Part shown: in pieces, positions 2,861 through 36,894 of the stretch
How positions within the stretch are numbered: the stretch's first letter is position 1
How the letters are laid out: each line of letters opens with the position of its first letter
Virus record (IMG/VR): IMGVR_UViG_3300038321_000426
Location: 1-38,018 of that record
Source of the DNA: a virus
Taxonomy: Duplodnaviria > Caudoviricetes
DNA: 38,018 nucleotides
Strand: one strand, 5' to 3'
Program-made: the position numbers and the translations under genes
Notes under the pieces: model-generated
What the model was told of the DNA's origin: nothing
Databases searched by the model: none
Seen by the model: the letters and a program-made list of their open reading frames with translations, nothing else

Positions 2861-3490
2861 CTAGTTGTTATTAGGTACAACTGTTTTTAATTTATCTACT
2901 AAGCTATTAAAGTCATTTTCCTTATTTGATGTTTCAGTATTATATGACATCAACGTTCCAGTAGGATTGGTTGCTTCCTGATATAAACTGTTATAATCAT
3001 CATATAAACTACTTAATGTTTTATAACTTTCTTCATAACCTTTTGGAGGATTTTTTAGTTTTGACATATTTTTATCTATATCATCTTTAGCTTTTTTTCT
3101 AGTATCCAAAGAGCCATCTGTCTGCCAACCTGTGTTTAGATTACTAATTGCCGTATTAAAATCTGTTTCAGAATTAAAAATAGCACCATGCCATGTACTA
3201 GAAATTTGTGAACACATACTTTCAACTAAATCGCCTTCAACTTTAATACTCAAATAAGTTTCATTAAATGTTCGCACATAATCATCATGTTGTTCTTGAA
3301 TATTTAAGTATTTACCATAACAAACTCCTGCTATAATAAATACAGCAATAATTATAAAAAATATCGTTTTCTTTTTAAATCTTTTAGGTTTAATTTCACC
3401 ATTGTTATTTACCTCTTCTAAACTAGCACCACATTTACCACAAAATACATTACCTTTTCTATTTTTTTCTCCACATTTTGGACAAATCAT
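2861..3490 (-). CDS. Zinc-ribbon, single-TM membrane protein with helical extracellular domain (cargo)
   Basis: N-terminal CPKCG...FCGKCG, hydrophobic IFFIIIAVFIIAGVCYG segment. Confidence 0.8.
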   Translation of the reverse strand: MICPKCGEKNRKGNVFCGKCGASLEEVNNNGEIKPKRFKKKTIFFIIIAVFIIAGVCYGKYLNIQEQHDDYVRTFNETYLSIKVEGDLVESMCSQISSTWHGAIFNSETDFNTAISNLNTGWQTDGSLDTRKKAKDDIDKNMSKLKNPPKGYEESYKTLSSLYDDYNSLYQEATNPTGTLMSYNTETSNKENDFNSLVDKLKTVVPNNN

Positions 3491-3565
3491 AATAGCATCC
3501 CCTTATATTCTATATTACTTCTTATATTATTAATGCATTCACAATTTATTCATATCTTAATCAAT

Positions 3566-3590
3566 ATTCTACAAAATGTAATCAAATCCT
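3566..3590 (-). promoter_or_regulatory. SigH-type promoter
   Basis: - strand gcAGGA-N17-GAAT (GTAGAAT) upstream of 3490. Confidence 0.65.
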
Positions 3591-4498
3591 GCTAAAATAT
3601 TAAAATATTCTTGTAAACATCCATAATAGATAATAATATTTAGAATATAAAATACCCTCAAACGTACCCCATTAACCCGTTTGAAAGAATTTCAGATTTA
3701 AAATTTGTATTTATAAAGTCAAATTTTCCTGTGGGTAAAAATTGTACTTACTGCAATGGTTTTTAAAAATTTAGAGTGATTGAGTTATTTTTAATGCAAA
3801 TTTGCTTCAAAAAATAATAAAAGACATACCTCTATGCCCTTCTATCAAAATATTTTTATACAATATTCTATGAAATTTTATACATTTGTAATGCAGTACC
3901 TAATTGATAATATAATTCAATTGACACATCAACTTCGCTAAATAAATCCTTAGCGAACTTAGTCAAGTACCTTAAAATGCCTTACATCCGTTGATATAAC
4001 TTGTCTAACACAGTTTCGCTTTTTTATTTCGTTCAATTAGCTCATTGAGAATACGGAAAATTGGTAATTATTTTGCCTTTTAATACCATATATTACATTT
4101 AATATGGTATATTTTGCTATTTATTACAATGTATAAATTCACATAATTATTGTATATAAATACATAATATAGATTCAATGTCATTAAGTTAAAAAATAAA
4201 TATTATAGTTATGGAACAGAGTGTGTTAAAAAATACATACCTGTTCCTTTTTATATAATAATTTTTAAAAATTTACTCACTTTATAATTTTTTTTAAAAT
4301 ACTATTGTAATTTTATATTGAGATACCGTAAAATTCATTTTTTCCATAACAATAGATTTTTAAAAAACTGACTGACTAGTCAGTATTGCTCTATGTTATG
4401 TTAACCTCTTTACTATTATAAATTTATACTTATTAATTAATCATTAACGTGTATTAATTACATACTAATCATTAATATTTGTCAATTAATATTTGCTA

Positions 4499-5848
4499 TT
4501 AGTTAGCATTATCACCATTCATACTATTATTGTCTTTACTATTATCTTTGCTATTTATATTATCACTTTCCCCTTCTTCTTTCAATCTGTCTAATTCTTG
4601 CGTAACATCTGTTGTTATAGGAGATTTCTCAATAATAGTTTTCTTTGATATAGCACCCATATCATATTGCTTATTTAATTGATCTAGTAAGTCACTAGCA
4701 TTTACTGGTCTACTATAATTAAATTCTACATCGATATATTCATCATCACTAAACATTACTCCTTTTAATAGCAATAACTTATCAAATGCTTCAAACCTTT
4801 GGATTAATCCTGCCCTTATACATTGTTCATTGACCATTGCATACACATCAGCCAACTGATAAAGTATCTGTAAACTAACTTCCGATACATTAGATATATT
4901 ACCATTACCACCAGTTGCAATGCTTGGCATATGTGCTACAAAATTGAGTTTCTGTTCCAATTTATCAATATACATTTTAATGGTATTATAATCCATAGTA
5001 GCATTTACATATTTCATATCACTACCATTTTCAAGTGAAATGGAATAACCTACTGCATCCTTATCAATTGTACCTTCTATTTGTTGTCCTGTAATTACTG
5101 GTATAGGACTTAATGACAACGTATATATACTATCACCTAACTTGGATAATAAGTCCTCTATTTCATCAAGAATAGGCAATATATCATATAATAGAGATTC
5201 TCCATAATTAATATTCCAATCATTTTTATTATGATAATGAATAGGAAGTCCACTTAAATTGGGACTACTCGATATTAGATTAATACCTTCATTTTCATTA
5301 TTATAAGAATCCACCCTATCTGGATAATATACATTATAGTAATCAATACCATTTACAGTCCAATACTCTATAAAAGCAACATAGTTATTTGTCTCAGTAA
5401 TTACTGGATAACCGTCCGCACTATCAATAATCTTAGATACTATATTCTTATTACCATCAAGATATACGTATTCATAAGCATCTCCAAACTTACCTATATT
5501 ATCTATAATATCATAATCTATTTGGTTATAATTGCCTTTCCTATATATATTCTGGTATGCAGATACTTTATTCTCTGAACCCGTTAAACTTAATGGTTTC
5601 CCTAATAAATATGTACTATGGAAATTTAATATTGTTTTTGCTTCCTGTATAATTAATTTCTTTGTCTTATATTCCTTGCCTTTATACTGCATATCCTTTT
5701 TCTGTAATATTCTATGTATTCCATGCAGATATTCTTTATTGCTTATTACTCTACTAATTCTATTTAAATGAAATCCTTGATTTACTTCTTGAACAAACCA
5801 TTCAGGATCACCACTATATACTTTATTAATATATTCATTTATATCCAT
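4499..5848 (-). CDS. Phage portal protein, SPP1 gp6-like
   Basis: 449 aa, immediately after TerL; motifs FGDAYEYVY, LPIHY..N..GES, SNVSEVSL, EFNYSRPVN. Confidence 0.9.
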   Translation of the reverse strand: MDINEYINKVYSGDPEWFVQEVNQGFHLNRISRVISNKEYLHGIHRILQKKDMQYKGKEYKTKKLIIQEAKTILNFHSTYLLGKPLSLTGSENKVSAYQNIYRKGNYNQIDYDIIDNIGKFGDAYEYVYLDGNKNIVSKIIDSADGYPVITETNNYVAFIEYWTVNGIDYYNVYYPDRVDSYNNENEGINLISSSPNLSGLPIHYHNKNDWNINYGESLLYDILPILDEIEDLLSKLGDSIYTLSLSPIPVITGQQIEGTIDKDAVGYSISLENGSDMKYVNATMDYNTIKMYIDKLEQKLNFVAHMPSIATGGNGNISNVSEVSLQILYQLADVYAMVNEQCIRAGLIQRFEAFDKLLLLKGVMFSDDEYIDVEFNYSRPVNASDLLDQLNKQYDMGAISKKTIIEKSPITTDVTQELDRLKEEGESDNINSKDNSKDNNSMNGDNAN

Positions 5849-5862
5849 TTAATCAATCCTTT

Positions 5863-7428
5863 CTACCATTTATAATTTATTCCATGCTTTATGATATATA
5901 ATGCAAGTGCTGTGGCCATTACACTATCATCATGCTGGCCTGAAACTGCACCCATACTTCCACTATCACTTATTTCAAAAACCTGCATTTCCTGAAGCAA
6001 TCTTACTGAATTAATTTGTATTGCTCCAGTATCAAACAATTCAACAAAATCATTTATAATAATTCCTTTGCTTTTAGCATTGGTATCAAAACCTAATCTG
6101 GTTATCATTTTATTGTTTTCATCAAATAATTTTTGTTTGTATATTCTTTGATATTTGAAAGTATATCTCAATCTTTCAATAACACTATTACCACCACTGG
6201 CTCTTTCAACATTTAATATTGCTTTATTATAATAATGACCTAATGTATCAATTATTTCTGCCATTTGATAAGGTTTAATCTTATTATTATAAAACTCTGC
6301 TACCTGTTCGCCATCTTGGGAGAATACTTCACATACAGAATAATCTTGTCCTACACCTTCAGACATATCTACTCCAATAAAATAACGTTCTCCTACTTTT
6401 TTTGTCTTATAAATAAAAAATGATTTACCATAATATTTTTTCAATAATACTGGCAAGTCAATCAAATTATCTTTCTTTATGTAATTATTCTTTGGAATAC
6501 TTCTTTGCACATCTGTTATTCTTTTATTATTGAATATATTTGCTCCACTGTTTATGAATCCTTCTAAATCTGTAGAAGGGTACTCCTGATGAAAAGCATC
6601 CAATCCACTACTAGCAACTTTTAATCTTCTCCACATTAATTGTTCCATACTGGCACCCAAATTTACTAATTCCAATTCTTCATCATCTAATTCTTCTTTA
6701 ATAAGTGATTTGTTATTATGTTTTGCTTTATATATTTCAGCACTATTTTTATAATCCTTTTCAAATAATGTGCTGCCATCAATCCAATTAAAGAAGAACG
6801 ATTTATAACTATTTTCATTATTTTTTGCTTGAAAATATAGATCGTGAAAATAATTCAATCCATTTGCAGTAGATTCAATAATTAATTTTCCATCTGGTGC
6901 TAATGCCTGAGTAATACTATTTAATTGTTTCTTGGACATCTTCCAAAATGCAAATTCTGATAAATGTACTAGATGCAATGTATCGCCCCTTGCTACATCT
7001 TTATTACCTGCACATACACAAGTAATCTTGCTACCATTTACCATTTTTATTTCCTGTCTATTGTTAGCAATTGTTTTTGGTCTTAACCAATCGGGTAATG
7101 AATTAAACTGCTGCTTCAATTTATCGAATATAGTATTACAACTCTTCTGATCATGTGATACAAGTAAGCAACAACTATTAGGATATACAATACATTGTCT
7201 TATACTTAAAGCAACTGTACATACAGATAGTCCCAACTGCCTAGATTTAAGTACAATATTAAATTTATTTAATCCTTCAACAAATTGTTTTTGCTCTGGT
7301 GTAAGTATAAAAGGTACTAATTTTGTATCTTTATTAACTATTTTAATAAATGCTCCTATCCATTTAATTTCGTGTCCATCTTGCCACAAATATTTTAATT
7401 TCTTAGCATTTTCTATGCTCAATGGCAT
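5863..7428 (-). CDS. terL: Terminase large subunit
   Basis: Walker A LKSRQLGLS, Walker B variant LVHLSEFAFW, coupling motif ESTANG, RNase H-like nuclease IGVDMSEG...HDDSVMA. Confidence 0.95.
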   Translation of the reverse strand: MPLSIENAKKLKYLWQDGHEIKWIGAFIKIVNKDTKLVPFILTPEQKQFVEGLNKFNIVLKSRQLGLSVCTVALSIRQCIVYPNSCCLLVSHDQKSCNTIFDKLKQQFNSLPDWLRPKTIANNRQEIKMVNGSKITCVCAGNKDVARGDTLHLVHLSEFAFWKMSKKQLNSITQALAPDGKLIIESTANGLNYFHDLYFQAKNNENSYKSFFFNWIDGSTLFEKDYKNSAEIYKAKHNNKSLIKEELDDEELELVNLGASMEQLMWRRLKVASSGLDAFHQEYPSTDLEGFINSGANIFNNKRITDVQRSIPKNNYIKKDNLIDLPVLLKKYYGKSFFIYKTKKVGERYFIGVDMSEGVGQDYSVCEVFSQDGEQVAEFYNNKIKPYQMAEIIDTLGHYYNKAILNVERASGGNSVIERLRYTFKYQRIYKQKLFDENNKMITRLGFDTNAKSKGIIINDFVELFDTGAIQINSVRLLQEMQVFEISDSGSMGAVSGQHDDSVMATALALYIIKHGINYKW

Positions 7429-7832
7429 TATTTATCACCTTGCAATCCAGGTATATTAATTCCATCAAGATATTCATTAACCTCATCTTCTCCATTTTTA
7501 AAGAAATCACTTTTAAAAAAATCTTCGCACCATTTAGCAGAATTTACATCACCTTTTTTTATTGCTTTGTTGTACATACTATTATAAATATCAAGCATTT
7601 TTAAATTTTGTACTTGCTTCAAATATGCTTTTATTGCTTCCTGTACGTCTTCTCTCATTATCCAATCTGACATAGCAGTTTCATACTCAACTGCTGTACA
7701 ATTTTTTATCTCTTTATCATAATTTTCTTTAGTTCTATCACTATCTACATACCACTTAACAAAATATGAAATTTTTTGGTTATTACCATGTAACATATTT
7801 TTTATATTTTCTGGTGGAGTTTTTTTTGCCAT
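7428..7832 (-). CDS. Probable terminase small subunit
   Basis: 134 aa helical ORF whose stop overlaps the TerL start; KAIKKGDVNSAKW resembles the TerS GDxxA motif. Confidence 0.7.
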   Translation of the reverse strand: MAKKTPPENIKNMLHGNNQKISYFVKWYVDSDRTKENYDKEIKNCTAVEYETAMSDWIMREDVQEAIKAYLKQVQNLKMLDIYNSMYNKAIKKGDVNSAKWCEDFFKSDFFKNGEDEVNEYLDGINIPGLQGDK

Positions 7833-7927: not shown

Positions 7928-9361
7928 CTAATCAAATCTTCTCGTATATATATTATTTACCCATCCTTTTACAATATTATCATTATTATCTTCATCTATG
8001 TATTCAACATAAGACCAATGATTATTTTTCTTTATAATTTCTACAACATTACCTTTATATAACTTTTTAATACAATATGACTTCATGGACTTTCTTACCC
8101 TCACATAAGCTTTATCTGAAACAATATATCTATAAGTTCTAAAAACTATTTTTTCATTTTCATGAAATTCATTTTTTATCTTAAACGCTACATCCTTTTT
8201 AATAACTTTCAATTCTCCATTATTAATATTTTTTTTATCACTAGTAATTCTTATAATATTAGTAATACCTTTTACAAAATTATTTCGATTAGTAATAGCT
8301 AAATTAACCAAATTTGTAATAATAATAGTAATAATAATCATTATAAATTTAGCTATTAAAGGATTCTTATTAGAAAAAATTTTCCATTTAGCATCTATTT
8401 TCTGTTGAGTATTTTTCTTTTCAACAACCGTATCATTTTCACTGAATACATCTTTTATAATATTTTGAGTTTCTGATATTTCTTCTGTAGTTGGTCTATA
8501 ATTATTTAAACTTTCAATATCTTCATCAGTTAGAACCATATCTTCTGCTAATCGCTGGAAATTCCAAATTGGTTTAAAAGAAGTTTTAAATTGTGAAACA
8601 ACACTATCAGATATTATTTTTGACATACCTGTTAATGGTTGTAACATTTCTTCAATTTGTATTTTTGTATCTATAATTGGTGCTAAAGTTTCAGCAACAT
8701 TATTAGCTTTCCAAATTAGTTGGGTACAAAACAAATTATTTGATGATATTACATCTGATATACCACCATTAATTCTAAAATCATCTACATTAAATTTAGG
8801 AATAATTTTACACCAATTATCATAATTAAACTGAAATAATTTATTTACTTGTACAAGATTATCTATAAAACTTTTTGGTATTGATTGAATAGTATTTCTA
8901 AAATCTAAAAATCTATTAGCTATATCTTCACACTTTTTTAAACACTTGTTTCTTTCATATTCAATCGCATTATAAAATCTTTCAAAGTGATTATCAATTA
9001 CGTTTTTATTGTAATATTCAGTCAACGTTTTTGATTGCTTTACTACTAATTCTAATATTTTAATTAAATCTTTATCATTAAAATTTTCTACATCCTTTAT
9101 TTCTACATTATTAATTTTTTGTTCAACCTGAGCCATATTAACTTTTATCATAGAAAACACTAATCCACAGAATGCTTTTCTATAATCTTTAAATTTATTA
9201 TATATCTCAAAATATTTTTTATGAGCATTACAATTATAATATACTGGAACATAAAATATACCTTTATCACTAGGTACTTGTACTATTTTTGTTTTATTTT
9301 TTATACTTTTTATTAATTCACTTGCGTTATGTATTTTTTTACTTTTATCATTATCAGCCAT
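7928..9361 (-). CDS. Membrane-anchored protein with C-terminal bacterial SH3 domain (cargo)
   Basis: TM segment IMIIITIIITNLVNLAI; C-terminal AYVR...KLYKGNVVEIIKKNNHWSYVEY...KGWV. Confidence 0.75.
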   Translation of the reverse strand: MADNDKSKKIHNASELIKSIKNKTKIVQVPSDKGIFYVPVYYNCNAHKKYFEIYNKFKDYRKAFCGLVFSMIKVNMAQVEQKINNVEIKDVENFNDKDLIKILELVVKQSKTLTEYYNKNVIDNHFERFYNAIEYERNKCLKKCEDIANRFLDFRNTIQSIPKSFIDNLVQVNKLFQFNYDNWCKIIPKFNVDDFRINGGISDVISSNNLFCTQLIWKANNVAETLAPIIDTKIQIEEMLQPLTGMSKIISDSVVSQFKTSFKPIWNFQRLAEDMVLTDEDIESLNNYRPTTEEISETQNIIKDVFSENDTVVEKKNTQQKIDAKWKIFSNKNPLIAKFIMIIITIIITNLVNLAITNRNNFVKGITNIIRITSDKKNINNGELKVIKKDVAFKIKNEFHENEKIVFRTYRYIVSDKAYVRVRKSMKSYCIKKLYKGNVVEIIKKNNHWSYVEYIDEDNNDNIVKGWVNNIYTRRFD

Positions 9362-11612: not shown

Positions 11613-12167
11613 TTATAATGCCATATACATAGGTTCACAACCTTTTAAATATACATCATCATTCTTTTTCATAATAGGTTTAAATGATACAAATTTATTT
11701 CTAATGTAAAATTTTTTAGCACTAGGAACTGAATATAATATAATACAAACAGCCCCACACGTACTTTCTGTAAAATTATTAATTTGATTTATTGCTTCGC
11801 ATAATAAAATATCACTAAAAGTACCATCTTCTTTAATCTTTGAATATGATATATCTTGATATGATTTATCTACCGCAAACATTTTTATTTCAACTGCTGG
11901 AGCTAAACCAATTTTACCTTGAGATTCATTTGTTTCTACAATCATTGCAGAACAATCTAACGTATAAAAACCAATAACTTTACTTTTATTATCATTCAGT
12001 ATTAATTTAGTTACTCCACGTCCTTCAGTTGTGTCACATTTTGCATCATTACATAAATATCTATCTATTTCACTATTTCCACACTCAAATTCACTTAACA
12101 TAGAACAATATTCCGTAGAGAAACTTTCTATACTATAGTCAATATTTTCACCATATAAAATAGCCAA
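11613..12167 (-). CDS. GNAT acetyltransferase, TacT/AtaT-like toxin
   Basis: FECGNSEIDRYL, VIGFYTL, PAVEIKMFAVDKSYQ, AKKFY..NKF. Confidence 0.8.
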   Translation of the reverse strand: MAILYGENIDYSIESFSTEYCSMLSEFECGNSEIDRYLCNDAKCDTTEGRGVTKLILNDNKSKVIGFYTLDCSAMIVETNESQGKIGLAPAVEIKMFAVDKSYQDISYSKIKEDGTFSDILLCEAINQINNFTESTCGAVCIILYSVPSAKKFYIRNKFVSFKPIMKKNDDVYLKGCEPMYMAL

Positions 12168-12181
12168 AACCGTACCCCTTC

Positions 12182-12451
12182 TTACTTATGCCTATTTCCT
12201 TTTAATCTTTTTAGCTTGTTTAAAACACTATTTATAGGTGTTTTATCCTGACTTAATTTAATAAAATCCTCTTTCTTCTCTGGATCAACTCTCAATATTG
12301 TTTTTACTGGCATTGAAATTGAACTCATAGTATCACCATCCCCCTCATTTTTTTGTTGCTCCTTACCGAGCTCCTTATTATTTTCGTTATCTTTATTAGA
12401 CATTATATTTTTGTTGCCACTATTATTTTGTGGCTTGTCCTTTTTGTCCAT
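12182..12451 (-). CDS. Small protein, probable antitoxin partner of the GNAT (true start may be internal MSSISMP)
   Basis: Ends 14 bp upstream of GNAT start; internal GGGGATGGTGA RBS before MSSISMP. Confidence 0.5.
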   Translation of the reverse strand: MDKKDKPQNNSGNKNIMSNKDNENNKELGKEQQKNEGDGDTMSSISMPVKTILRVDPEKKEDFIKLSQDKTPINSVLNKLKRLKGNRHK

Positions 12452-12719
12452 ATTATATATCCCCCATTAATTGTAAATCATTTCTAATTTAATTATACAA
12501 TTAATGGAAATATATACAATAACTTTCGTACTAACTTTTATTACATTATATCACAATTTACATAAATTTTATCACATTTACGCATATTTTATGAATTTTT
12601 GCATATAATATATATTTAAAATAATTCGGTTATATATAAATTTCAGATACTTCAAGACCACTTATATACCAACACTTTCCGCTCCATTAATTCCTATATC
12701 ATCAAATAAATTAATCCTG

Positions 12720-13895
12720 TATGCAGTATATGACTAATTATACATAGCAACATTGTAGATTAAGTTATTTGCAAATATAGAGGATGCTATATGATAAGGA
12801 CATTAAGTCCCTCTGACGCTGAGTTTCACATTGAAACCCACTAACTTTATAAATTTGACATAACATCAAATAATTGCACCCAGTGACAACTTTTAAAATA
12901 TTACAAATCGCCTTGTATGGCGAATCATAAATATAAATATTCTTATATCCTGTAGCGGGACACTATATATTTGTATCCATCAACTTGATATTTGCAATTA
13001 AAGATACAGCCATAATGACTAAAGGTACTCGTATTATACTTGAACCCTTTGTAGGGAGGACTAAATTTCGTCCCCCGATTAATAAATATCTCATACTCAA
13101 TGATTGCTTATCAGTATTATAGAGTTCTACTTTATGTCTACCCCTTCAAGGATATTCATAGTTTGATTACCCTATAAAAATAAATAGATAAGTGGAAATT
13201 CCCCCTATAGGGAATTAGGATCACACATAGTGACTCAGATATTTCTAAATGTTCTATATGAACCATTAGAACCATCCCCTGATTTGTTGACGTTACGATA
13301 ACATATAATTTCCGCTATCCCATAGAAGGACATCCGCTGCATTTAATATGCTTAGGTATTAGTTACCGTTCCAAGCGTTAACGAATATAATTAATTTTCC
13401 TATATTCTAGATTAAACTTATGACGTTAATATCTACCAATAGATTTAAAATCCATTATTATTTTCAGTGATATCAATTATTTACGAACTAATTTTGGGTA
13501 ATAACAGGTCATTTGAATTCACCTGTTTTAAATTATCATCCTAAGTTTAACTTAGGTAGTGATACTCCCTATGAAGATCAGTTATTTTCCCCAACTCTGG
13601 AGATTATTCTTTAAAGAAAACACCTCGTTTGAACCGTCCTGTTTTAAAAATATTGCTATTTTGGCAATGTGCTTTAATAGGTTACAGAACTTTGGTATCT
13701 TCATTATGGAGAACGCATAACTGGTATTCATTTAAAGGCCAGCTAATTTCAGATAGAAACCCTTGGCAAGGGAACGCTGTATTCATGTAATATTCTTTTA
13801 GGAATTTACATATATATTGGTTCGGACTCTCAGTCGTAACGATATCAGCGACACGTTAAAATCATCCATTAATAAGTCAATTTTAACCCATATAA
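12720..13895 (-). ncRNA. Candidate large structured non-coding RNA (~1.1-1.2 kb), family not recognised
   Basis: No ORF of 60 aa or more; more than 15 consecutive hairpins; G-U pairs favour - strand; upstream promoter; structural paralog at 16510-16840; 3' end approximate. Confidence 0.7.
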
Positions 13896-13901
13896 TTCCA
13901 T

Positions 13902-13930
13902 ATTATACAATAATACCTCTACATGGTAAA
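13902..13930 (-). promoter_or_regulatory. SigA-type promoter for the large RNA
   Basis: TTTACC (13930-13925)-N17-TATAAT (13907-13902); overlapped by inverted repeat atacctcta/tagaggtat. Confidence 0.6.
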
Positions 13931-13959: not shown

Positions 13960-14322
13960 CTATTTTTCTTGTTCTTCTTGAGATAACTTAGCCCATATTT
14001 TGTATACTGTAGTAGCTTTTAAAGCATCATTTTCTACCATTGTTTGTAATTCTGGTATTAAGGTTGTAAGTTTCTTATAATTTTGAAGTTGTCTTTGATC
14101 AATATTTAATTGTTTTGCTAAATCTTCTTGTGTTTTTGCTTGAGCGAAATTATTTCCATCAAGCTCCTTATTTATAATATATTGATTGTTACCATTCCCC
14201 CAGCACTACCTTGTCTAATTCCATAAATTCTTTCAAGCTCCATAATACATTTAGCCATTTTCATAGGATTGCAGTTCCCGATTCCACGTTGCATAATATT
14301 TGTGGATATTAAATCCTCAGTT
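13960..14322 (-). pseudogene. Truncated, frameshifted phage ParB/Spo0J-like gene fragment
   Basis: Manual translation EDLISTNIMQRGIGNCNPMKMAKCIMELERIYGIRQGSAG / shift at G run ~14197-14201 / NGNNQY...TQEDLAKQLNIDQRQLQNYKKLTTLIPELQTMVE (ParB HTH). Confidence 0.8.
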
Positions 14323-16440: not shown

Positions 16441-16509
16441 TCTAAAACATATTATTACATACAATTTTTACTTAAAATGTTTTTAAATTATTTTTTTGTA
16501 TTTGTGACA

Positions 16510-16840
16510 CTGAGTGGTACACTATATATTTACAATTAAAGGTATAGTCATAATAACTGTAGGTATTCGTATTATACTTGTACCCTTTGTAAATAGATTT
16601 AACCAATTTATAAATAATATTTCACACTCAATCACACATAGTGATTATCCTGCATGAACCATTAAAATCTGTTGACGCTATGATAGTATATATTTTCCGT
16701 TATCTCTGAAAAGGATATCATTTTTTCTCCTGATATGTTGAGGAAGTTAAGTTCCGCTACATTTGAAATGCTTAGGTATAATTATATTAGTGGTCGATTT
16801 AAAGTCCATCGGTATACCTGTACACCCGTTTTGGAGTACC
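16510..16840 (-). ncRNA. Compact paralog of the core of the 12.7-13.9 kb RNA
   Basis: Colinear blocks shared with 12955-13456: cactatatattt, ggta.tcgtattatacttg.accctttgta, atcacacatagtga, atgaaccatta, tgttgacg, ccgct.cattt..., atgcttaggtat. Confidence 0.6.
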
Positions 16841-17417
16841 CATGATGGAAAATCTTTTATTATCAACTAAATATATCAAATAAATTTACAATTAATTATG
16901 AATATAAAGGTGCAAATTTTGCATTAAATGATGTTAATATATAATATACTATACATACCATTTAGCACATTTTTTGCACCTCATAATCTTATATGAATTG
17001 TTTTGTGTACAAGCCATCCTATTACTATTATTACTGCAAACAATTGCTATATTTTATTACTTATTGCATTATAAGAATATAGATATATCAATACTTATAA
17101 TGAATAAAGTTGACTATCATACCATTATATTTCAACAGTCAACTTTTAAACATAATTTTTAGGTTATTCAAATACAAATATTTTTTATTGTAAACTACAA
17201 ATATAAATTTAAGTTACAATATTATTATCTTTTAATAAACAAATGAAGCCAGTATAATACTGACTTCAAATGATTAAATGGGTTTGCTTGTACTAGAAAT
17301 ATATATTCCTACAATAAAAATATATGATATTCCAATCATTCCGTCTAGTATTTATCGTTGGCCAAATATGAAACTTATGGTAATTATTTTTCCAACAAAA
17401 AGTAAAAAACTCAACTC

Positions 17418-17650
17418 TCGATTAATTAAACTTTTTATGAAAGTGGAACGCCCTCAAGGCGGTGGAACTTGAATAAAAAGTTTAATTAATCGAAAAAGGT
17501 CTTAGACAACAATAACTATTATTAACAACTATTATTAACTATTATTTTTATATTGATTGAGTTGAAGGTCAAGATCAAGAGCTTGCAGGCAAATTGCAAA
17601 GAACCGCAATTTGCCTTTGTGTCGGCCTAAAGTCCGCCAGACAAGGTTAT
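17418..17650. other. Putative replication origin / cruciform region
   Basis: Perfect 21-bp inverted repeat (17418-17438/17473-17493), three aactattatt repeats (~17514-17547), 11-bp GC hairpin (17587-17616), directly downstream of the helicase. Confidence 0.55.
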
Positions 17651-24205: not shown

Positions 24206-27043
24206 TTATTTTATGGCATTTTTTTCTTCTTTATCGTGAAAGTTCAGAGGATTCTCCTTAAATATATCTATCGTTTCTTTTGGTACTGCCTTGTATAACA
24301 AAGTCAGTAATGTCAATCCATAACGGCTAATTTCTTTGTTTTTACTCCTCTCTGAATACAATTGCTTATAGATTGATATTATACTTTCCGTTTTTATTTT
24401 TAGTTTTCTTAATTCTTCTAAAATGGTATCAGTTGTTTTTGTTTGTTGTTCATATAATTTAAATCTTTCTTTTTTATCTTTTTCTGTATTTATCTGCATT
24501 TTTATACCTCTTAATGTACTATCAAGATTTTTAGCAATTGTTTCTAGTTTATCCATCTGCTTTCTATTTTCTTTATCTTTAGTTTCTATAGTAATCATTA
24601 AATCTAATATGCTCCATGTAGATACACTTCTTTTTTTGCCAGGTATTTCTTTATCAAGTATTTGTTCCAGATAATCCATACTACATTTAAATATGGCATA
24701 TGCTGTAGTTTTATTATCATCCTTTTTACTTTTAAATTTATTTTTCTTTTTATTTTCTTTGTTACCATTCTTATTATCATTTTTGCAATATTTCATAAAC
24801 ATAGGTCTTACAGTTTTCTTTAAATCATCATTACATTTTTCTTCTGCTTTTTCCTTATCATTTGAATATTTCTCTCTATAATCTCCAAGCTTTATAAAAT
24901 CTTTAACGTCTAAATATTTACTATATAAAGTTTTTCTCAATTCATCTAAAATGGAATACATTTTTATATTCGTAAAATTCTTTTTAGCACTATCTATTTC
25001 AACATTACTTAGAGAAGAAAGTTCACTAACAATACTATAAAGTTCTTTAATTTTTTTATCATTTTTAATTTCTTGATATTGCTTATTCCAATCTTCTTCA
25101 TTTTTGGCTACAATATCTTTTGTTTTTTTATGAATCATATCCCACATTAAGGATTGATATACCTGAGATAAGTTCACTATTTTGCCAGTATAATTTACAC
25201 CTATTTTTCCATCAATTTTGGCTCTATTTTCTGCTGTAAAAGGTTCTATTAATTTTGAAGCTTCTATCTTATTAACTGGAGTTAGCCATTGTTGTGCATC
25301 TAAAGCTTTGGAAACAATTGTCGGGTAAACGGACAATATCATTTCATCTCCGTCGAAATCGAATCCAGATCCACGTTCCATGAGGTCATTATCTATTCCG
25401 TTTATAATTATTACATTATCAGTAAAATTGAAGTAATATGTAAATTCATCTTTATAAGTATTTTTCATATAAAGAACATTCCCACCACAAATTAGGGGGC
25501 TTCTAAATCCTGCTATGCATTCTTCATCATCAAACATAGGGCAATAACATTCATTACCTTTTAATAATGCTTTATCCTTGCTATATGCACCCACTGATTG
25601 AAGTAATAATTCATAAGGATTTCCACATAAGATTGCATAATCAGTATTAGGTATTTTTATTCTACCTTCTCTCAAATTATCTATATAACTATTAACTAAT
25701 TCATGTACATAATTTTTATATAGTGCTGTATGCTCTATATCCTTGTTTCTAGCAATTAAATTATAGATCAATTGTCTACTATAGCATAATTTCCCTGTAG
25801 CACCTACATACCTTGCTACGGCTCGTATATCGTCTTTTATAGATTGTATAAAGTTAAAATCATATTTTAGCAGTTTCCTAAGTTCATCTTTTGTAAAATC
25901 TAAACTGTTAATAACTTGATATGTTAATTGCTGGATTTTATCTCCAAATTTACTCTTAGTTTCACTTCTAACTATACCAAAATTATTATCATGATTAATG
26001 AATTGCTTCCAGTATTCATAATATCTTTTCTGGTCTTCTCTATTATTTTTATCTGCCATTTTAAGCCACTTTAAACTACTAGGAGTTGTAATTACTAGAA
26101 CATCTTTCGCTTTTATTTTATTATCAAACATATCTTTTATTTTCCAGCTATCAAAATCAATATTATTTTTAATAGCATATGCCTTTAAAAATAATTGAAT
26201 ATTTGTGTTGAATGTGCAAGATTTGAACCAGGACGATCTTAATTGCATTACTGCTTTGTCTTCTCTCACTGCTTGTTTAAAAATACTATAATCAACCAAG
26301 CTTTCACCATCAGTGACTTTGTTTTTTAAAGTAATTTTTTCATCTTGTGCTGAAATTACACCATTATTTTCTCTAGTTACACTTGCATATGTAGGATATT
26401 CTTCTACAATATCATTAACCATTAATATGTTTTTGGGATTGATAGTTATAGTTCTTTCTATAGCACTCATAGTTAATGCTCTATAAGCTTGTATAGAACA
26501 TACTTCAAGTTCTTTATTTTCAAAATCTTTCCCCATATTTTCAAATTTTATCATATCTTTATAATATTTTTCTAAAATAAATATACAACTGTTATTTTTT
26601 GCCTTTGATGCAGTTCTACTATATTGAACATAATGTTTACCATTAAGGTTAAATCCATTTTTATATAAATTATTTCTAATTTTATTACCTTTAGCATTTA
26701 CGTGTATATACGTGGTTATTTCATTTCCATTTTTATCATATCTTTTTTTAGCATTTTTACGGTTATTTACAACTTTATTACCTTCATCATCTTTTTTTAT
26801 CACCCTATATTTATTATTAAATTTTACATTAATAAATATATCAGTATATAGATATGTTTTATCATTCAAAATTTTAGATTTAATTGCTTTGTCTCCTTTG
26901 CTTTCTATAAAATAGCATATATCTAAATTGGCATTAATACTGCAATTATATAAATCAAAGTCCTTTTCATTCTTAACTTTATAATTATCATTTTCATATA
27001 AATATTTTCCTTTTATAGTTCTTATATAATAAATATTACCCAT
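24206..27043 (-). CDS. Single-subunit two-barrel RNA polymerase, cellular RdRP (QDE-1/RDR) / SPbeta YonO-like
   Basis: Ordered motifs TDGESL, MQLR...FKS, GRIKIP..YAILCGNPY, FRSP, catalytic GSGFDFDGD, GKIVN, EIDSAK. Confidence 0.92.
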   Translation of the reverse strand: MGNIYYIRTIKGKYLYENDNYKVKNEKDFDLYNCSINANLDICYFIESKGDKAIKSKILNDKTYLYTDIFINVKFNNKYRVIKKDDEGNKVVNNRKNAKKRYDKNGNEITTYIHVNAKGNKIRNNLYKNGFNLNGKHYVQYSRTASKAKNNSCIFILEKYYKDMIKFENMGKDFENKELEVCSIQAYRALTMSAIERTITINPKNILMVNDIVEEYPTYASVTRENNGVISAQDEKITLKNKVTDGESLVDYSIFKQAVREDKAVMQLRSSWFKSCTFNTNIQLFLKAYAIKNNIDFDSWKIKDMFDNKIKAKDVLVITTPSSLKWLKMADKNNREDQKRYYEYWKQFINHDNNFGIVRSETKSKFGDKIQQLTYQVINSLDFTKDELRKLLKYDFNFIQSIKDDIRAVARYVGATGKLCYSRQLIYNLIARNKDIEHTALYKNYVHELVNSYIDNLREGRIKIPNTDYAILCGNPYELLLQSVGAYSKDKALLKGNECYCPMFDDEECIAGFRSPLICGGNVLYMKNTYKDEFTYYFNFTDNVIIINGIDNDLMERGSGFDFDGDEMILSVYPTIVSKALDAQQWLTPVNKIEASKLIEPFTAENRAKIDGKIGVNYTGKIVNLSQVYQSLMWDMIHKKTKDIVAKNEEDWNKQYQEIKNDKKIKELYSIVSELSSLSNVEIDSAKKNFTNIKMYSILDELRKTLYSKYLDVKDFIKLGDYREKYSNDKEKAEEKCNDDLKKTVRPMFMKYCKNDNKNGNKENKKKNKFKSKKDDNKTTAYAIFKCSMDYLEQILDKEIPGKKRSVSTWSILDLMITIETKDKENRKQMDKLETIAKNLDSTLRGIKMQINTEKDKKERFKLYEQQTKTTDTILEELRKLKIKTESIISIYKQLYSERSKNKEISRYGLTLLTLLYKAVPKETIDIFKENPLNFHDKEEKNAIK

Positions 27044-27336
27044 TCATTATCCCCCTTAAATTTTCTTAACCTATTTTTACAATAAGATTCATGAAGGACA
27101 AAATAACTTGTCCTTATATGTTTAATTATCCATTTCTATTTCCTTCTTCCCATCCGCAAATATCACAATGCCACTTACATTCTTCTAACTCTCCTGCACC
27201 ATTAGGTGATTGGTCACATATTTCACGACCATATTTAGGACACGTCCTTATATGTTCCTTTATCCATTCTTTATGTTCTGCTTCAGCCCATTCCTTATTT
27301 ATTTCTACCTTTTAACCTTTCATTATTTAAATTTGC

Positions 27337-27798
27337 TTAATTCGTTTTTTTATTAAAATAACTTAAACCTGCTAATAACTTATTCTTTTTTTCATCTATT
27401 TTAGATTTATCTACTTGTTGAACCTTTGAGGTATCATTAATATCAGCTTTCACCTTTTCGGTACTATCTGTAACTTTTATATCCTTATTGCCACTATTAG
27501 GTAATATACCTTTTTCATCCTTTTGGGTATTAATTGCACCCTTTTGTACCTTTTTATTACTATTCCTTTTAGTAACTTTTTGAACCTCTTTATTTCTTTT
27601 GGGTACTATCTGCACCTTTTCGGTACAATTTGTACCCATTTGAACCCGTTGAAAACTATTAGTTGCTAAACGATATATTGCTTCTTTAATTGCATCAGAT
27701 TCAGAATAGGATTGAGATAACCAATCACTGATTATCCTATCCTTTTCTTTTTTTGGATTTAATGTTATATATATGCGTCTACTATCTCCCTTAGCCAT
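27337..27798 (-). CDS. ParR-like ribbon-helix-helix adaptor with repetitive C-terminal tail
   Basis: RRIYITLN...DRIISDWL...SDAIKEAIYRLA; 3 bp downstream of the actin-like ATPase. Confidence 0.7.
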   Translation of the reverse strand: MAKGDSRRIYITLNPKKEKDRIISDWLSQSYSESDAIKEAIYRLATNSFQRVQMGTNCTEKVQIVPKRNKEVQKVTKRNSNKKVQKGAINTQKDEKGILPNSGNKDIKVTDSTEKVKADINDTSKVQQVDKSKIDEKKNKLLAGLSYFNKKTN

Positions 27799-27801
27799 AC
27801 A

Positions 27802-29151
27802 CTAAGCCACCTTACTCATTTCCTGTAATAGTAGCATAGCTCCATCTATATTACTTTCAGTTGGATTATCTAATACATGAACTATATCCTTATGGACTCC
27901 TAAAATTTCAATTAGCTTATCTAGTAAAGTTATCCCATTTGATAACTTATTGTTTGAAAGTAAATTTGCAACTCCTCCTGTAAATACAATGTTGTCATAA
28001 TCTTCCAAATCTTTATTATATCCTTGTAGTGCTTCTTTAATTTTATTTAGATAATCTATAAGAATACTATCATCTACTATCAGCTTATCTTTCTCATATA
28101 AATATGCTATTTTTTCTATAGATTTATCTTTACCCTTGTTATTTTTTAAGTCATTTTGAATACTACCATATAAGTCAAAAGAACCACATTCTAAAGTATC
28201 AGCATTTATAATATCTCCATCTGATAAAGACACTGCATTAATAGTCCTACTTCCAAGATCTGTTATTAATAAATCTCCATCTAAATAGTTAATCATATTT
28301 TCATCTTCTATAAATAATCGGGTAGAAGAATATCCTTCTGGCATTATATTTACTGATTTTATAGTTATAATTCTGCTTCCATTTTGCGTTTCAAATTCAA
28401 ATTCTTGACCTTGTAATGAATCTATAATACTGCCAGCTCTAGATGTTTGTGTTATTGGGAGTAAATAACCTAAATTAACGTCATATATATCTTGATCTGA
28501 ATCTACAACCTTATCCACCGCATAAAGTATTTGACATTTAACATCCTTAAATTTTTTAACTTTATCATACTCTCCAATATATTCAGCATTTTCTGTTCCT
28601 ATATATATCTTTTTACCGCCATACTTTACCCATTCCAAATTAGGTAAATCAGGTAAACTTTGTTTACAAATCTTACTTGTCATAGTTATTTTATGTTCTC
28701 CACATTTTGCTTTTATGTTATAGTTACCATTATCCAAAATCACATCATATACCATATTCTTGTCACTATTTTCAACCAATTTATTATTTTCCATTTTAAA
28801 ACCTTCCTTCATTAAATTTATATAAATTTTGCTTGATATTTCTTCATCACTTAAACCTTCATCTATCATTTGTTTTGCTATATGGATAATTTTATCATCT
28901 ACATTCATCCATACTGGTTCTGTGGTTGTATTAATATTTACTTGACTCAAATCAATTTGCAAGTTCCCTTTTTCATTTTTATCTTTGTCAAGCTTTTTAA
29001 ACCTCCAGCTTATATTACTATCAATTCCATATTCTTGAGTTATACTTGATGCAGTTTTTCCCATGTTTTCAGGTCTTTCTAAAAGTGTTGAAAATCTTAC
29101 ACCTGAAATGAAATAACGGTTCTGAAAATAGAAATTTTTGGTTTTTGGCAT
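27802..29151 (-). CDS. parM: ParM/StbA-like actin-family ATPase with ~119-aa N-terminal extension
   Basis: Phosphate-1 ILDNGNYNIK, connect MPEG, phosphate-2 TDLGSRTIN, adenosine VFTGGVA. Confidence 0.85.
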   Translation of the reverse strand: MPKTKNFYFQNRYFISGVRFSTLLERPENMGKTASSITQEYGIDSNISWRFKKLDKDKNEKGNLQIDLSQVNINTTTEPVWMNVDDKIIHIAKQMIDEGLSDEEISSKIYINLMKEGFKMENNKLVENSDKNMVYDVILDNGNYNIKAKCGEHKITMTSKICKQSLPDLPNLEWVKYGGKKIYIGTENAEYIGEYDKVKKFKDVKCQILYAVDKVVDSDQDIYDVNLGYLLPITQTSRAGSIIDSLQGQEFEFETQNGSRIITIKSVNIMPEGYSSTRLFIEDENMINYLDGDLLITDLGSRTINAVSLSDGDIINADTLECGSFDLYGSIQNDLKNNKGKDKSIEKIAYLYEKDKLIVDDSILIDYLNKIKEALQGYNKDLEDYDNIVFTGGVANLLSNNKLSNGITLLDKLIEILGVHKDIVHVLDNPTESNIDGAMLLLQEMSKVA

Positions 29152-32488: not shown

Positions 32489-34390
32489 TTATTTATTATT
32501 TTCAATTTTAACATAATTAGTTAATTCTACTATTGGAACTTGATTTCCATCCATATGTGCTAATACTTCACTAACACCAGTAATTCCTATCCAACTATAC
32601 CCCGATTGCTCTAAATCTAATAAATAATAATTATTGTTTTTAAGTAAATCTTTATTCCATACAACTACTAAACTCAAATCGCTCATTTTTTTATAGTTAT
32701 CCTCAAAATCTTTTATCAAATCACTTAAGTTAACTTTAAATTCGATATTCAATAAATCATTATCTCTAGTTATTGTTTTAAATTTATTTTTCGTTTTATA
32801 AAATATGTTAATATCACCATCATATTTATTAAAAGAAGATAGTTGATATGTATTAATCCCTTTAATTATGCCTTTTCCTATTAATTCATAAAAAATTGCT
32901 ATAACTGTATTTTCATGTTTGGGAATTTTTTTTATAGATAAATTACTCTTTATATTAGGTAATTCAGTAATTATTACATCTGGTTCAATATATTCATCCT
33001 GATTTTCAACAGGAATTTTACCTGCAACACTAATAGCTAAATATACTAATTTACTAACATATATTTGTTCAAAATATTTATATATGTTTGAAAGTAATTT
33101 AGGATTTTTAATTCCTTGCTTTCCATAGTTAACTCTATCGTTTATATTTATTACAATGTGTATATTATTTAAATAACTTTGGTTTTTCCCTTTTTTAGGA
33201 GCTCTTATAGGATTAGTAGTTAACACACCATCTGCTGCAATGATTTGATCTGCCTTGTTTAAAAGTAAACTGCTAATATTATACTTTGCACTTTTTGAAG
33301 CTGAAGCTATGACCAAATAAATTCCTTTTATTTTTGCACTTAATAAATTATTAAAATTGTCTAATTTATTATAATTATTTAAACTAGGACTTACTAATAA
33401 CTCCTTTAAATTATTTTCATCAGTTATTTTTATTACCCACGCATGAGATCCCCCATATTTCACATTTGGATTAAACGCTTTTAATGCTTCTTCATTAAAA
33501 ATACCTTTTCTTCTTGAATCACTATATATTTCTGATAAGTCCCAATATTTACTTGGAAATTTTATTTCATAACGTTTATCTTTACTACATTGTTCTGTCA
33601 TTTTCCAATAATTTCTTAGTTCCAAATCATATGTTTTAACATAATTAGCTTCATCCATTCCAGTATCCTTTTTTATAATTATTTCAATTTCAGCTGGTTT
33701 TTTATTATCAAAGAGTCTATTAACATCTCCAGAATATGAATGAGTTCTAAAATAATGTTCTACATATAAGCTAGCTTTACTTCTATTTTTTAAAAATTCT
33801 TCATATGGCACAATACCTTCATATTCTTTAAATATATTTACAATAAAGCTTCTTATGCTCAGTATTCTCATCGGTTTTTCAGTTAAGAAAGGAAATGTAT
33901 ATTCTATTAAAGTATTATAACCTTTAGGTAATCTTTCATATTCAATACACTCTGTATCAAAAAATTCTTCGTCACCATTATTTAAGAACTTAAATCCATT
34001 ATTAAATCTTGCATACCATAGTTTTCCTTTAGGATTTCTCGTGATAAGTTCAAACTGTTTAGAACATAAGATTATCATTTTCATTCCTACTCCATGTTCA
34101 CCTCTTATGTTGTGATTTCTAGTGTTAGATTTTTCACCTTTGCCTAATGAAAAAAACACTTTATTACAAGGAAACCCTTTACCATTATCATAAATTAGAA
34201 CTTTATTGTTAACAATGTCAAAAATAACTTTAACTTTAGGATTATCAACATCTTCAACAGCATCAAGTGCATTTTGTAATCCTTCAAAAATCATAATCCA
34301 TTCGTCAGCATAAGAATCTAATTGTTTGTTTGCAGAAGTTCTTAAAATACTTTCAGCATCCTCAGTATTATTTAAAAAAATTGTACTCAT
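32489..34390 (-). CDS. GHKL (MutL/MORC-like) ATPase fused to a C-terminal PD-(D/E)xK-like nuclease; candidate defence gene
   Basis: EGLQNALDA, DNGKGF, GEHGVGMK; C-terminal HENTV...YDG...IEFK...LVVVW. Confidence 0.8.
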   Translation of the reverse strand: MSTIFLNNTEDAESILRTSANKQLDSYADEWIMIFEGLQNALDAVEDVDNPKVKVIFDIVNNKVLIYDNGKGFPCNKVFFSLGKGEKSNTRNHNIRGEHGVGMKMIILCSKQFELITRNPKGKLWYARFNNGFKFLNNGDEEFFDTECIEYERLPKGYNTLIEYTFPFLTEKPMRILSIRSFIVNIFKEYEGIVPYEEFLKNRSKASLYVEHYFRTHSYSGDVNRLFDNKKPAEIEIIIKKDTGMDEANYVKTYDLELRNYWKMTEQCSKDKRYEIKFPSKYWDLSEIYSDSRRKGIFNEEALKAFNPNVKYGGSHAWVIKITDENNLKELLVSPSLNNYNKLDNFNNLLSAKIKGIYLVIASASKSAKYNISSLLLNKADQIIAADGVLTTNPIRAPKKGKNQSYLNNIHIVININDRVNYGKQGIKNPKLLSNIYKYFEQIYVSKLVYLAISVAGKIPVENQDEYIEPDVIITELPNIKSNLSIKKIPKHENTVIAIFYELIGKGIIKGINTYQLSSFNKYDGDINIFYKTKNKFKTITRDNDLLNIEFKVNLSDLIKDFEDNYKKMSDLSLVVVWNKDLLKNNNYYLLDLEQSGYSWIGITGVSEVLAHMDGNQVPIVELTNYVKIENNK

Positions 34391-36374: not shown

Positions 36375-36785
36375 CTTGACTTTTGGTTCAGGTCTTATAT
36401 ACTTGCGGTTTGTTAAGCACGTTCTGGAATATAGTTTGCCCTAAGAAAAGGGCAAAAATAAAAATATACTTGCGTACGTGCTGAAGTATCCTGTTTATAT
36501 CACTGCTATTGTAGTATATTTTTAATATTTTAATTGCTACCCTAAAATACTTATCCACAACCTGTGGGCAATTAATATACTGCCGATATTTCTATATCTA
36601 GCAAACCTACCTATCTAATTTATTAGTCGGTCAGATACACCCAACTGAGGGGCAAATAATACAATAGCAGTAATATTGCTTGTCCCCATGAATTTTATAG
36701 CATCGGCTTCATGTAACCTACTAGAATTATTTACCGTTGCTCCAGTGTAAGCACAACTCACATATACCTTAAAAAAGGGTATAGG
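36375..36785 (-). ncRNA. Candidate ~400-nt structured RNA downstream of the integrase
   Basis: 12-bp long-range stem 36502-36513/36660-36671, stem 36416-36422/36476-36482 enclosing hairpin 36435-36456, GCAA loop on - strand. Confidence 0.5.
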
Positions 36786-36894
36786 AAATACACTTGCAAA
36801 ATCTTAATTTTTTTGATAAACTATATATTAGTTGGATATAAGATTATCAATAATAGTTTTGGTTTTACAAGACATATTGTTCATATTAAGTTGT

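Follow-up and report, generated by a model that had tools for sequence, protein, structure and literature searches.

Here we present element A, an ORF-free region of about 1.2 kb on the minus strand of a small, Clostridium-type provirus of 38,018 nt (IMG/VR record IMGVR_UViG_3300038321_000426; this whole stretch is referred to below as the window). The reading that we favour, held with about even confidence, is that 13895-12690 is the gene of a single large folded non-coding RNA (ncRNA) with its own promoter, carried as optional cargo of the provirus, GOLLD/ROOL-like in kind and representing a new family. The first-pass annotation of the window had already proposed a large ncRNA at this place; its minus-strand orientation, structural constraint, non-coding character and lack of an Rfam family all stood up in the present analysis, but a long-range helix that it named is not kept in the sole full-length homolog.

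Large non-essential prophage RNAs have precedent in GOLLD and ROOL, which are prophage-borne, abundant, dispensable where tested and cage-forming (PMC12286853; PMC7567579). According to PMC5737381, the 581-nt ROOL is surpassed in length by rRNA, GOLLD and group II introns only. As GOLLD is given as often >800 nt, an RNA of 1.2 kb would be unusually long. The role of these giant phage RNAs is an open question, and element A would add a third, longer family, the natural size variants of which (1.2 kb, 1.0 kb and 0.37 kb) map the modules that can be lost. It would also provide an independent case in which to ask whether these RNAs converge on cages and what they do on induction, as well as a new fold for cryo-EM. 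If it founds a new class, element A would be among the largest RNAs of the bacterial world outside ribosomes and introns.

Results and discussion

Element A, its promoter candidate and its copies

The features that bear on element A are listed here, with L017 designating the related locus that carries the full-length homolog.

12690..13895, minus strand: element A, candidate ~1.2-kb multi-domain structured RNA; ORF-free, homolog at L017 8476-9475, strand-specific pair sparing, no Rfam match
13902..13930, minus strand: sigma-A-type promoter candidate (-35 TTTACC, 17 nt, -10 TATAAT); predicted start ~13895, L017 counterpart 8443-8471
13960..14321, minus strand: frameshifted ParB-like gene remnant, directly upstream of the element A promoter; also in L017
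14905..15010, minus strand: copy C, a ~100-nt fragment resembling the 5' part of copy B
16490..16860, minus strand: copy B, a ~370-nt paralog that combines a C-type 5' part with the A core and is without several inner hairpins

The hairpins quoted in the first-pass annotation were found on the minus strand for all 13 motifs checked, among them those at 13772-13760, 13556-13540, 13527-13503, 13216-13197, 13076-13054, 12923-12908, 12839-12821 and 12812-12796. The stretch is indeed devoid of ORFs, the longest stop-to-stop frames being 71 aa (plus strand) and 65 aa (minus strand). A decayed protein gene was rejected because no credible Pfam or PHROGs match was found among the 22 peptides from these frames (0/22 at E<0.01). 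Element A has a GC content of 0.32, higher than that of the other six ORF-free gaps in the window (0.22-0.27).

The promoter-like site TTTACC-17-TATAAT at 13930-13902 was likewise borne out. Promoter-like matches are not enriched in the region (29, against 28.6 +/- 5.4 in shuffles), and the call is supported instead by the retention of TATAAT and the 17-nt spacer at the aligned place in L017. The -35 box is flanked by the arms of an inverted repeat (13953-13910). One arm is repeated directly, over 9 nt, close to the element A 3' end (12782-12774), and L017 shares this direct repeat. The 3' limit of homology lies at ~12690, 30 nt past the limit first annotated, and is the same in L017 and in an X9 contig. 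No clear terminator was found at this 3' end; terminator-like hairpins sit internally.

The sole full-length homolog, L017 8476-9475, is ~1.0 kb long. Across the 932 columns common to both it is 83% identical to element A, and 11 indels of 10-85 nt separate the two. It lies downstream of the same ParB-like remnant, has the same -10 box and ends ~125 nt before the putative terS. There are three partial copies besides this homolog; copies B and C are in the window, and a C-like fragment is found in L017 at 7995-8100, upstream of its full copy.

Among related records identified through terminase and capsid, element A was absent from 21 of 22 in one set and from 32 of 32 in the other (53/54), with only 22-35-nt matches in four records of the first set. 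Many of these 54 records are fragments, and among the near-complete ones element A is present in 0/2 and 0/12. Because nearly all relatives lack it, the RNA would be optional cargo, not a core part of packaging. Near-identical and diverged copies were present in contigs of four public runs from four studies (4 of the 13 listed runs were examined). BLASTN queries with A, B and the L017 region found no counterpart of the RNA part among 50,697 phage records or 72,556 plasmid records, the ParB remnant alone giving real matches. Pattern scans of the viral collection returned 10, 1, 11, 116 and 1 stretches, among which the L017 record was the sole homolog; the scans of the genome collection (one exact 19-base pattern, 1 match) and of metagenomes (2 matches) gave chance matches only, and a profile search of 254 loci (1.87 Mb) added no homolog. 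Since bacterial genomes were searched with one exact pattern, the family may be larger than seen here.

Folding energy and hairpin density

Element A folds better than dinucleotide shuffles at a span of 100 (z -5.8 on the minus strand, -4.7 on the plus strand) and also at a span of 300 (-3.6 and -4.4, respectively). Both strands exceed the shuffles, and thus the folding z-score by itself does not tell the strand. Moreover, z values of -4.5 to -5.2 are attained by three of the window's six other ORF-free gaps, and when 89 gaps in related elements were ranked by coverage with significant hairpins, the L017 gap came ~15th and the window gap ~27th, so that hairpin density alone is not unusual in this phage family. 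In view of these comparable gaps, neither hairpin density nor folding z was accepted as proof of an RNA. Copy B has an overall folding z of -0.8, no better than shuffles.

These observations bring in a DNA-level explanation, in which the region is a packaging, origin or recombination region with single-stranded DNA hairpins, or a set of palindromes maintained by template switching without any selected RNA. Folding of both strands beyond shuffles, the richness of the family in hairpin-dense gaps and the position of the L017 copy upstream of terS all fit such a region, and two loops that are inverted between A and L017 carry the signature of template switching (PMC8794818). Template switching also hits real RNA genes, however, including those for rRNA (PMC8794818), and 53 of the 54 relatives have the same packaging module without element A. 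With pair sparing confined to one strand and proceeding via G-U, as set out below, we regard a DNA-level structure as very unlikely.

Pairing is spared on the minus strand

Selection on base pairing was assessed with a slid-substitution null, in which the real substitution pattern is moved along the sequence with its clustering kept and the stability of the consensus fold is scored. For A and L017, the sense (minus) strand gave z -3.3, beyond 24 of 24 nulls, against -0.14 for the antisense strand; three non-coding and two coding pairs, drawn as controls from these same elements, ranged from -1.3 to +1.7. With both inverted loops masked, none of 56 nulls matched the sense strand over the whole element (antisense, 14/56). 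The same was true of the 5' third (segment 13780-13470; 0/112 sense, 37/112 antisense) and the 3' third (segment 12790-13080; 0/112 sense, 11/112 antisense). The middle third and the tail gave no sparing signal (76/112 and 66/112 nulls, respectively), the 100-nt span limit of the test being one that hides long-range helices there. A further region, D, was rejected as an RNA for want of a sparing signal.

In the middle third, the 15-bp helix 13273-13256/13096-13077 holds all 15 pairs in A, L017 and B, and the six pairs that vary do so on one side, all through G-U. The helix was derived from the A/L017 consensus, and B, which stood outside the derivation, keeps 15/15 pairs despite four changes of its own. 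In the three-way core of A, L017 and B, 95% of 140 cells pair, compared with 38-50% with slid partners; this core contains no both-side change, and its shuffle control was uninformative (500/500). Among the 226 consensus pairs of A and L017, 22 are changed on one side, all via G-U, and eight on both sides, these counts being fold-selected and hence partly circular. Loops differ between A and L017 while their stems hold in 16 of 23 cases.

A naive test based on single-sequence folds was weak: changed pairs were kept at 16/41 (10.4 expected) and 24/46 (19.4 expected), and the substitution rates of paired and unpaired sites were nearly equal (0.14 vs 0.16). The public-run contigs contributed 26 variant positions, of which eight fall in consensus pairs; seven of the eight keep the pair, as do five of the six that are new with respect to L017. 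On the minimum-energy fold of A itself, the same variants keep the pair at only 7/19, several of them coming from single low-depth contigs. Altogether the evidence for structure derives from two full and three partial copies, too few for formal covariation statistics. The G-U-type changes favour the minus strand, a conclusion that the data support, and tolerance of G-U on one strand is the pattern that an RNA yields and that a duplex DNA site would not give.

Domain organization

The predicted organization of element A is as follows.

13366..13778, minus strand: 5' domain; predicted closing pairing of 13778-13771 with 13379-13366, hairpins 13772-13760, 13745-13718, 13603-13588 and 13556-13540
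13077..13273, minus strand: central domain with the 15-bp long-range helix 13273-13256/13096-13077, which encloses hairpins 13233-13221, 13216-13197 and 13192-13107
13114..13176, minus strand: 63-nt self-contained hairpin, in A but in neither L017 nor B, that interrupts the loop of a helix which the copies share
12790..13080, minus strand: 3' hairpin series, 13050-13022, 12990-12978, 12963-12945, 12923-12908, 12870-12854, 12839-12821 and 12812-12796
12690..12790, minus strand: near-invariant 3' tail (6 substitutions over 101 columns) with a long imperfect hairpin that lacks a U-tract

Transcription from the sigma-A-type promoter candidate would yield an RNA of 1.0-1.2 kb, predicted to fold into a nested, multi-stem structure with a 5' domain, a central domain built on the 15-bp helix and a 3' series of hairpins. 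The closing strands of the 5' domain are invariant in A and L017 and hence show no covariation; likewise, the helices that would join the domains into one molecule are invariant. Within the 5' domain, the 13603-13588 hairpin shows a C-G to A-U change between A and L017. In the 3' series the stems are retained and the loops altered, with both-side changes at 12989/12979 and in the 12839-12821 hairpin. The 12690-12790 tail may be the end of the RNA or a DNA control site for downstream genes. The invariant hairpin 13216-13197 presents a self-complementary 6-mer around its loop, a lead, and as yet a lead only, toward a multimer joined by kissing loops.

Whole hairpins have been gained and lost between the copies. 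The 63-nt and 27-nt indels are self-contained hairpins (0/200 shuffles fold as well in each case), and 9 of the 11 indels are unable to fold alone. Element A is without a 22-nt piece, bounded by a 3-nt microhomology, that provides the 5' strands of two L017 helices, a loss that looks like erosion. The two loop inversions that separate A from L017, one exact (13233-13221) and one at 13 of 14 positions (13738-13725), show that loop sequence is not constrained there. The first of these inversions also decides the fate of the long-range helix named in the first-pass annotation, CACUAUGU/AUAUAGUG (13232-13225 with 12968-12961). The window and copy B both have this helix. L017 lacks it, because its counterpart of the 13-nt hairpin 13233-13221 is an exact inversion and the strand that should pair with CACUAUGU is different. 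Not being kept in the sole full homolog, it was rejected as a feature of the family.

The indels also bear on the view that element A is an eroding relic: a real RNA family, the copies of which (A, L017, B and C) are all decaying under relaxed selection, so that the signal reflects past function. Besides the microhomology deletions that take out one strand of helices, this view can draw on the frameshifted ParB remnant beside element A, on the partial state of B and C together with the poor folding of B, and on the absence of the element from 21/22 and 32/32 related records. What speaks against decay is that B has preserved the whole long-range helix through its own changes, that the -10 box and its spacing are kept, and that the A-specific and L017-specific pieces include whole hairpins. 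We consider general decay unlikely, and were it true, element A would still mark an undescribed RNA family worth looking for; the window's own copy of the family is possibly eroding.

The modular make-up of the copies could alternatively mean that the region comprises tandem smaller RNAs or cis elements, such as one RNA on the 5' side, another on the 3' side and a packaging-operon leader or promoter. Copy B has just the central-3' core with a different 5' part, the tail is without a structure signal, the L017 copy abuts terS, and internal terminator-like hairpins are frequent in the L017 region (7 vs 0.6 expected). Against this, the two full copies align collinearly all the way from the promoter to 12690, without an internal promoter conserved at the aligned place, so that a tandem arrangement seems to us distinctly unlikely.

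Relationship to known RNAs

The first-pass annotation could not match element A by eye to GOLLD, ROOL, OLE, tmRNA, RNase P or group I/II introns, and the Rfam searches agreed, with no family match for A, the L017 copy or B at E<=10; these searches and one of the whole window at gathering score gave chance-level matches only. Rfam 15 contains the GOLLD model, which did not match A, L017 or B either at gathering score or at E<=10; nor was there a match of these three to the ROOL covariance model. OLE RNA has a conserved chromosomal gene context, whereas the context here is a provirus, and element A has no OLE match in Rfam. By the tests run, membership of element A in GOLLD, ROOL, OLE or the introns was rejected, and the resemblance is one in kind only. 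The article text covered by the literature search yielded no description of element A.

Like GOLLD, element A is large (>800 nt), multi-stem, ORF-free and prophage-borne, and the variable length, shared core and variable 5' part of GOLLD (PMC12286853) recall copy B. Element A differs in being 1.0-1.2 kb long, as against "many members exceeding 800 nt", and in its setting, since GOLLD is often found beside tRNA genes and the window holds 0 tRNA or tmRNA genes. Whereas GOLLD is a homo-multimeric nanocage held by kissing loops and A-minor contacts, element A is known from sequence alone. With ROOL it shares prophage carriage, freedom from ORFs, a complex fold and few invariant bases, ROOL being dispensable in one tested strain (PMC5737381; PMC12286853). 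It is about twice the 581-nt mean of ROOL and lacks a tRNA cluster; ROOL has six multistem junctions along with three pseudoknots, whereas the multistem junctions of element A are predicted from two sequences.

An ORF-free gap of ~1 kb in a tRNA-less phage is also seen with the ~800-nt ORF-less transcript of ICP1 and the ncRNA of its PLE satellite (PMC7567579). In ICP1 such a gap gives the most abundant transcript (PMC7567579). The present case differs in host phylum and in its lack of a DNA match in the 50,697 phage records, and its transcript is a predicted one. By analogy with GOLLD and ROOL, the RNA would accumulate on induction and self-assemble, possibly as a multimer, and would work as an abundant folded scaffold and not as a message. 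As a tentative proposal for its function, the RNA might bind or shelter some partner on induction, as a scaffold or a cage.

The prohead RNA of phi29 is a phage RNA multimer tied to packaging, and the L017 copy resembles it in adjoining terminase genes. Element A is far longer and its provirus uses a terS/terL system; furthermore, 53 of 54 relatives are without it, which means that it cannot be an essential motor part like the phi29-type packaging RNA.

Another possible origin is a group I or group II intron, or some other RNA-based mobile element, that has lost its ORF. The occurrence of several partial copies in one element is in keeping with this, as is a weak S-like group I motif (2 mismatches to the consensus) in A and B. 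That motif is absent from L017, however; A has neither an R-like motif nor a domain-V motif, no Rfam match to group I or group II introns was found in A, L017 or B at E<=10, and no gene is interrupted, element A sitting between its own promoter candidate and intergenic DNA. An intron remnant is therefore highly improbable.

The host provirus

The gene set of the provirus in the complete record comprises a tyrosine integrase, scaffold, major capsid protein, helicase, terminase, SPP1-type portal and Ig-domain structural protein; no match to tape-measure, holin or lysin was found among the 33 ORFs of the window. The neighbouring genes are as follows.

4499..7832, minus strand: operon of putative small terminase (7428-7832, assigned by position), large terminase and SPP1-type portal
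11613..12451, minus strand: 89-aa ORF followed by an acetyltransferase-like ORF (phrog_1758, E 8e-22)

The ParB remnant matches annotated Clostridium ParB-family genes, its HTH_ParB hit (E 4e-4) being below the curated cut-off. The ORF pair at 11613..12451 is inserted cargo between element A and the packaging genes and is absent in L017; its layout is like that of a GNAT toxin-antitoxin pair. Overall, ~4.9 kb of cargo genes separate element A from the putative terS in the window, against only ~125 nt in L017.

Terminase and capsid searches led to a family of mostly 12-21-kb Firmicutes elements. They (L016-L037, L179-L211 and the window) carry integrase, scaffold, capsid, terS/terL, SPP1-type portal and Ig-domain protein; tail or lysis genes are not recognisable in the window, and among the relatives are complete ones of 17-18 kb that have terminal repeats. 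Proteins listed for Clostridium ljungdahlii and Clostridium sp. JN-1 match the L016 and L017 terminases identically, and close kin of the provirus are found in acetogenic Clostridium. We infer that the family is satellite-like, possibly a capsid-forming satellite type not yet described. The provirus resembles the capsid-forming phage satellites (cfPICI; PMC10085698) in carrying an integrase together with capsid, portal and terminase genes, in giving no match to a tape-measure, holin or lysin, and in having relatives of mostly 12-21 kb; the likeness so far is in gene content and size, and the provirus differs in its SPP1-type portal with scaffold protein.

Several other features of these elements were recorded. 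In the cargo slot upstream of terS, where L017 has the RNA, giant ORFs are found in L016 (1192-9528, 2778 aa) and L018 (21-7577, 2518 aa). The cargo region of the window encodes a 633-aa protein with a GHKL/HATPase_c_3 domain (32489-34390, minus strand), which could be a defence or restriction-associated gene. At 24206-29151 (minus strand), a 945-aa phrog_8308 protein lies beside an actin-like partition protein (ALP_N, phrog_691) and a 153-aa ORF, cargo of a kind that is unusual in an integrated element. Long near-perfect inverted repeats occupy the gap that follows the helicase (17422-17489 and 16907-16982; L017 7415-7515), and an inverted repeat at 16887-16985 is common to the window and L017 with its orientation flipped. 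An ORF-free gap at 3490-4499 (minus strand), with matching gaps of 0.5-1.4 kb after the portal in about 20 of 22 loci, has short shared motifs; neither it nor its counterparts gave a structure-sparing signal, and it is likely a DNA control or packaging site.

A second RNA candidate

A second ORF-free region, element E, of ~300-400 nt, lies just downstream of the integrase (window 36430-36830, minus strand) and occurs in the window and 10 loci (L020, L023, L026-L032 and L177). It matched no Rfam family at E<=10, nor did a profile comparison link it to element A. An alignment of eight sequences contains nine helices, 5-8 bp in length, the pairing of which holds in 85% or more of the rows; six of the nine show 3-7 both-side changes, and three helix pairs cross like pseudoknots. 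Helices with many both-side changes are listed here.

36682-36675/36660-36653, minus strand: element E helix
36548-36542/36533-36527, minus strand: element E helix
36604-36599/36539-36534, minus strand: element E helix
36645-36641/36630-36626, minus strand: element E helix
36745-36741/36725-36721, minus strand: element E helix
36637-36632/36617-36612, minus strand: element E helix

Element A might, in a rather speculative extension of the favoured reading, found a new class of phage RNAs >1 kb in length and longer than GOLLD, which would gain and lose whole hairpin modules around a ~350-nt core, self-assemble into an RNA-only particle and travel with capsid-encoding Clostridium satellites in which there is also a second RNA, one with three pseudoknots. 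Element E is better supported by covariation than element A and is a strong lead, possibly a ribozyme or an RNA regulator of the provirus.
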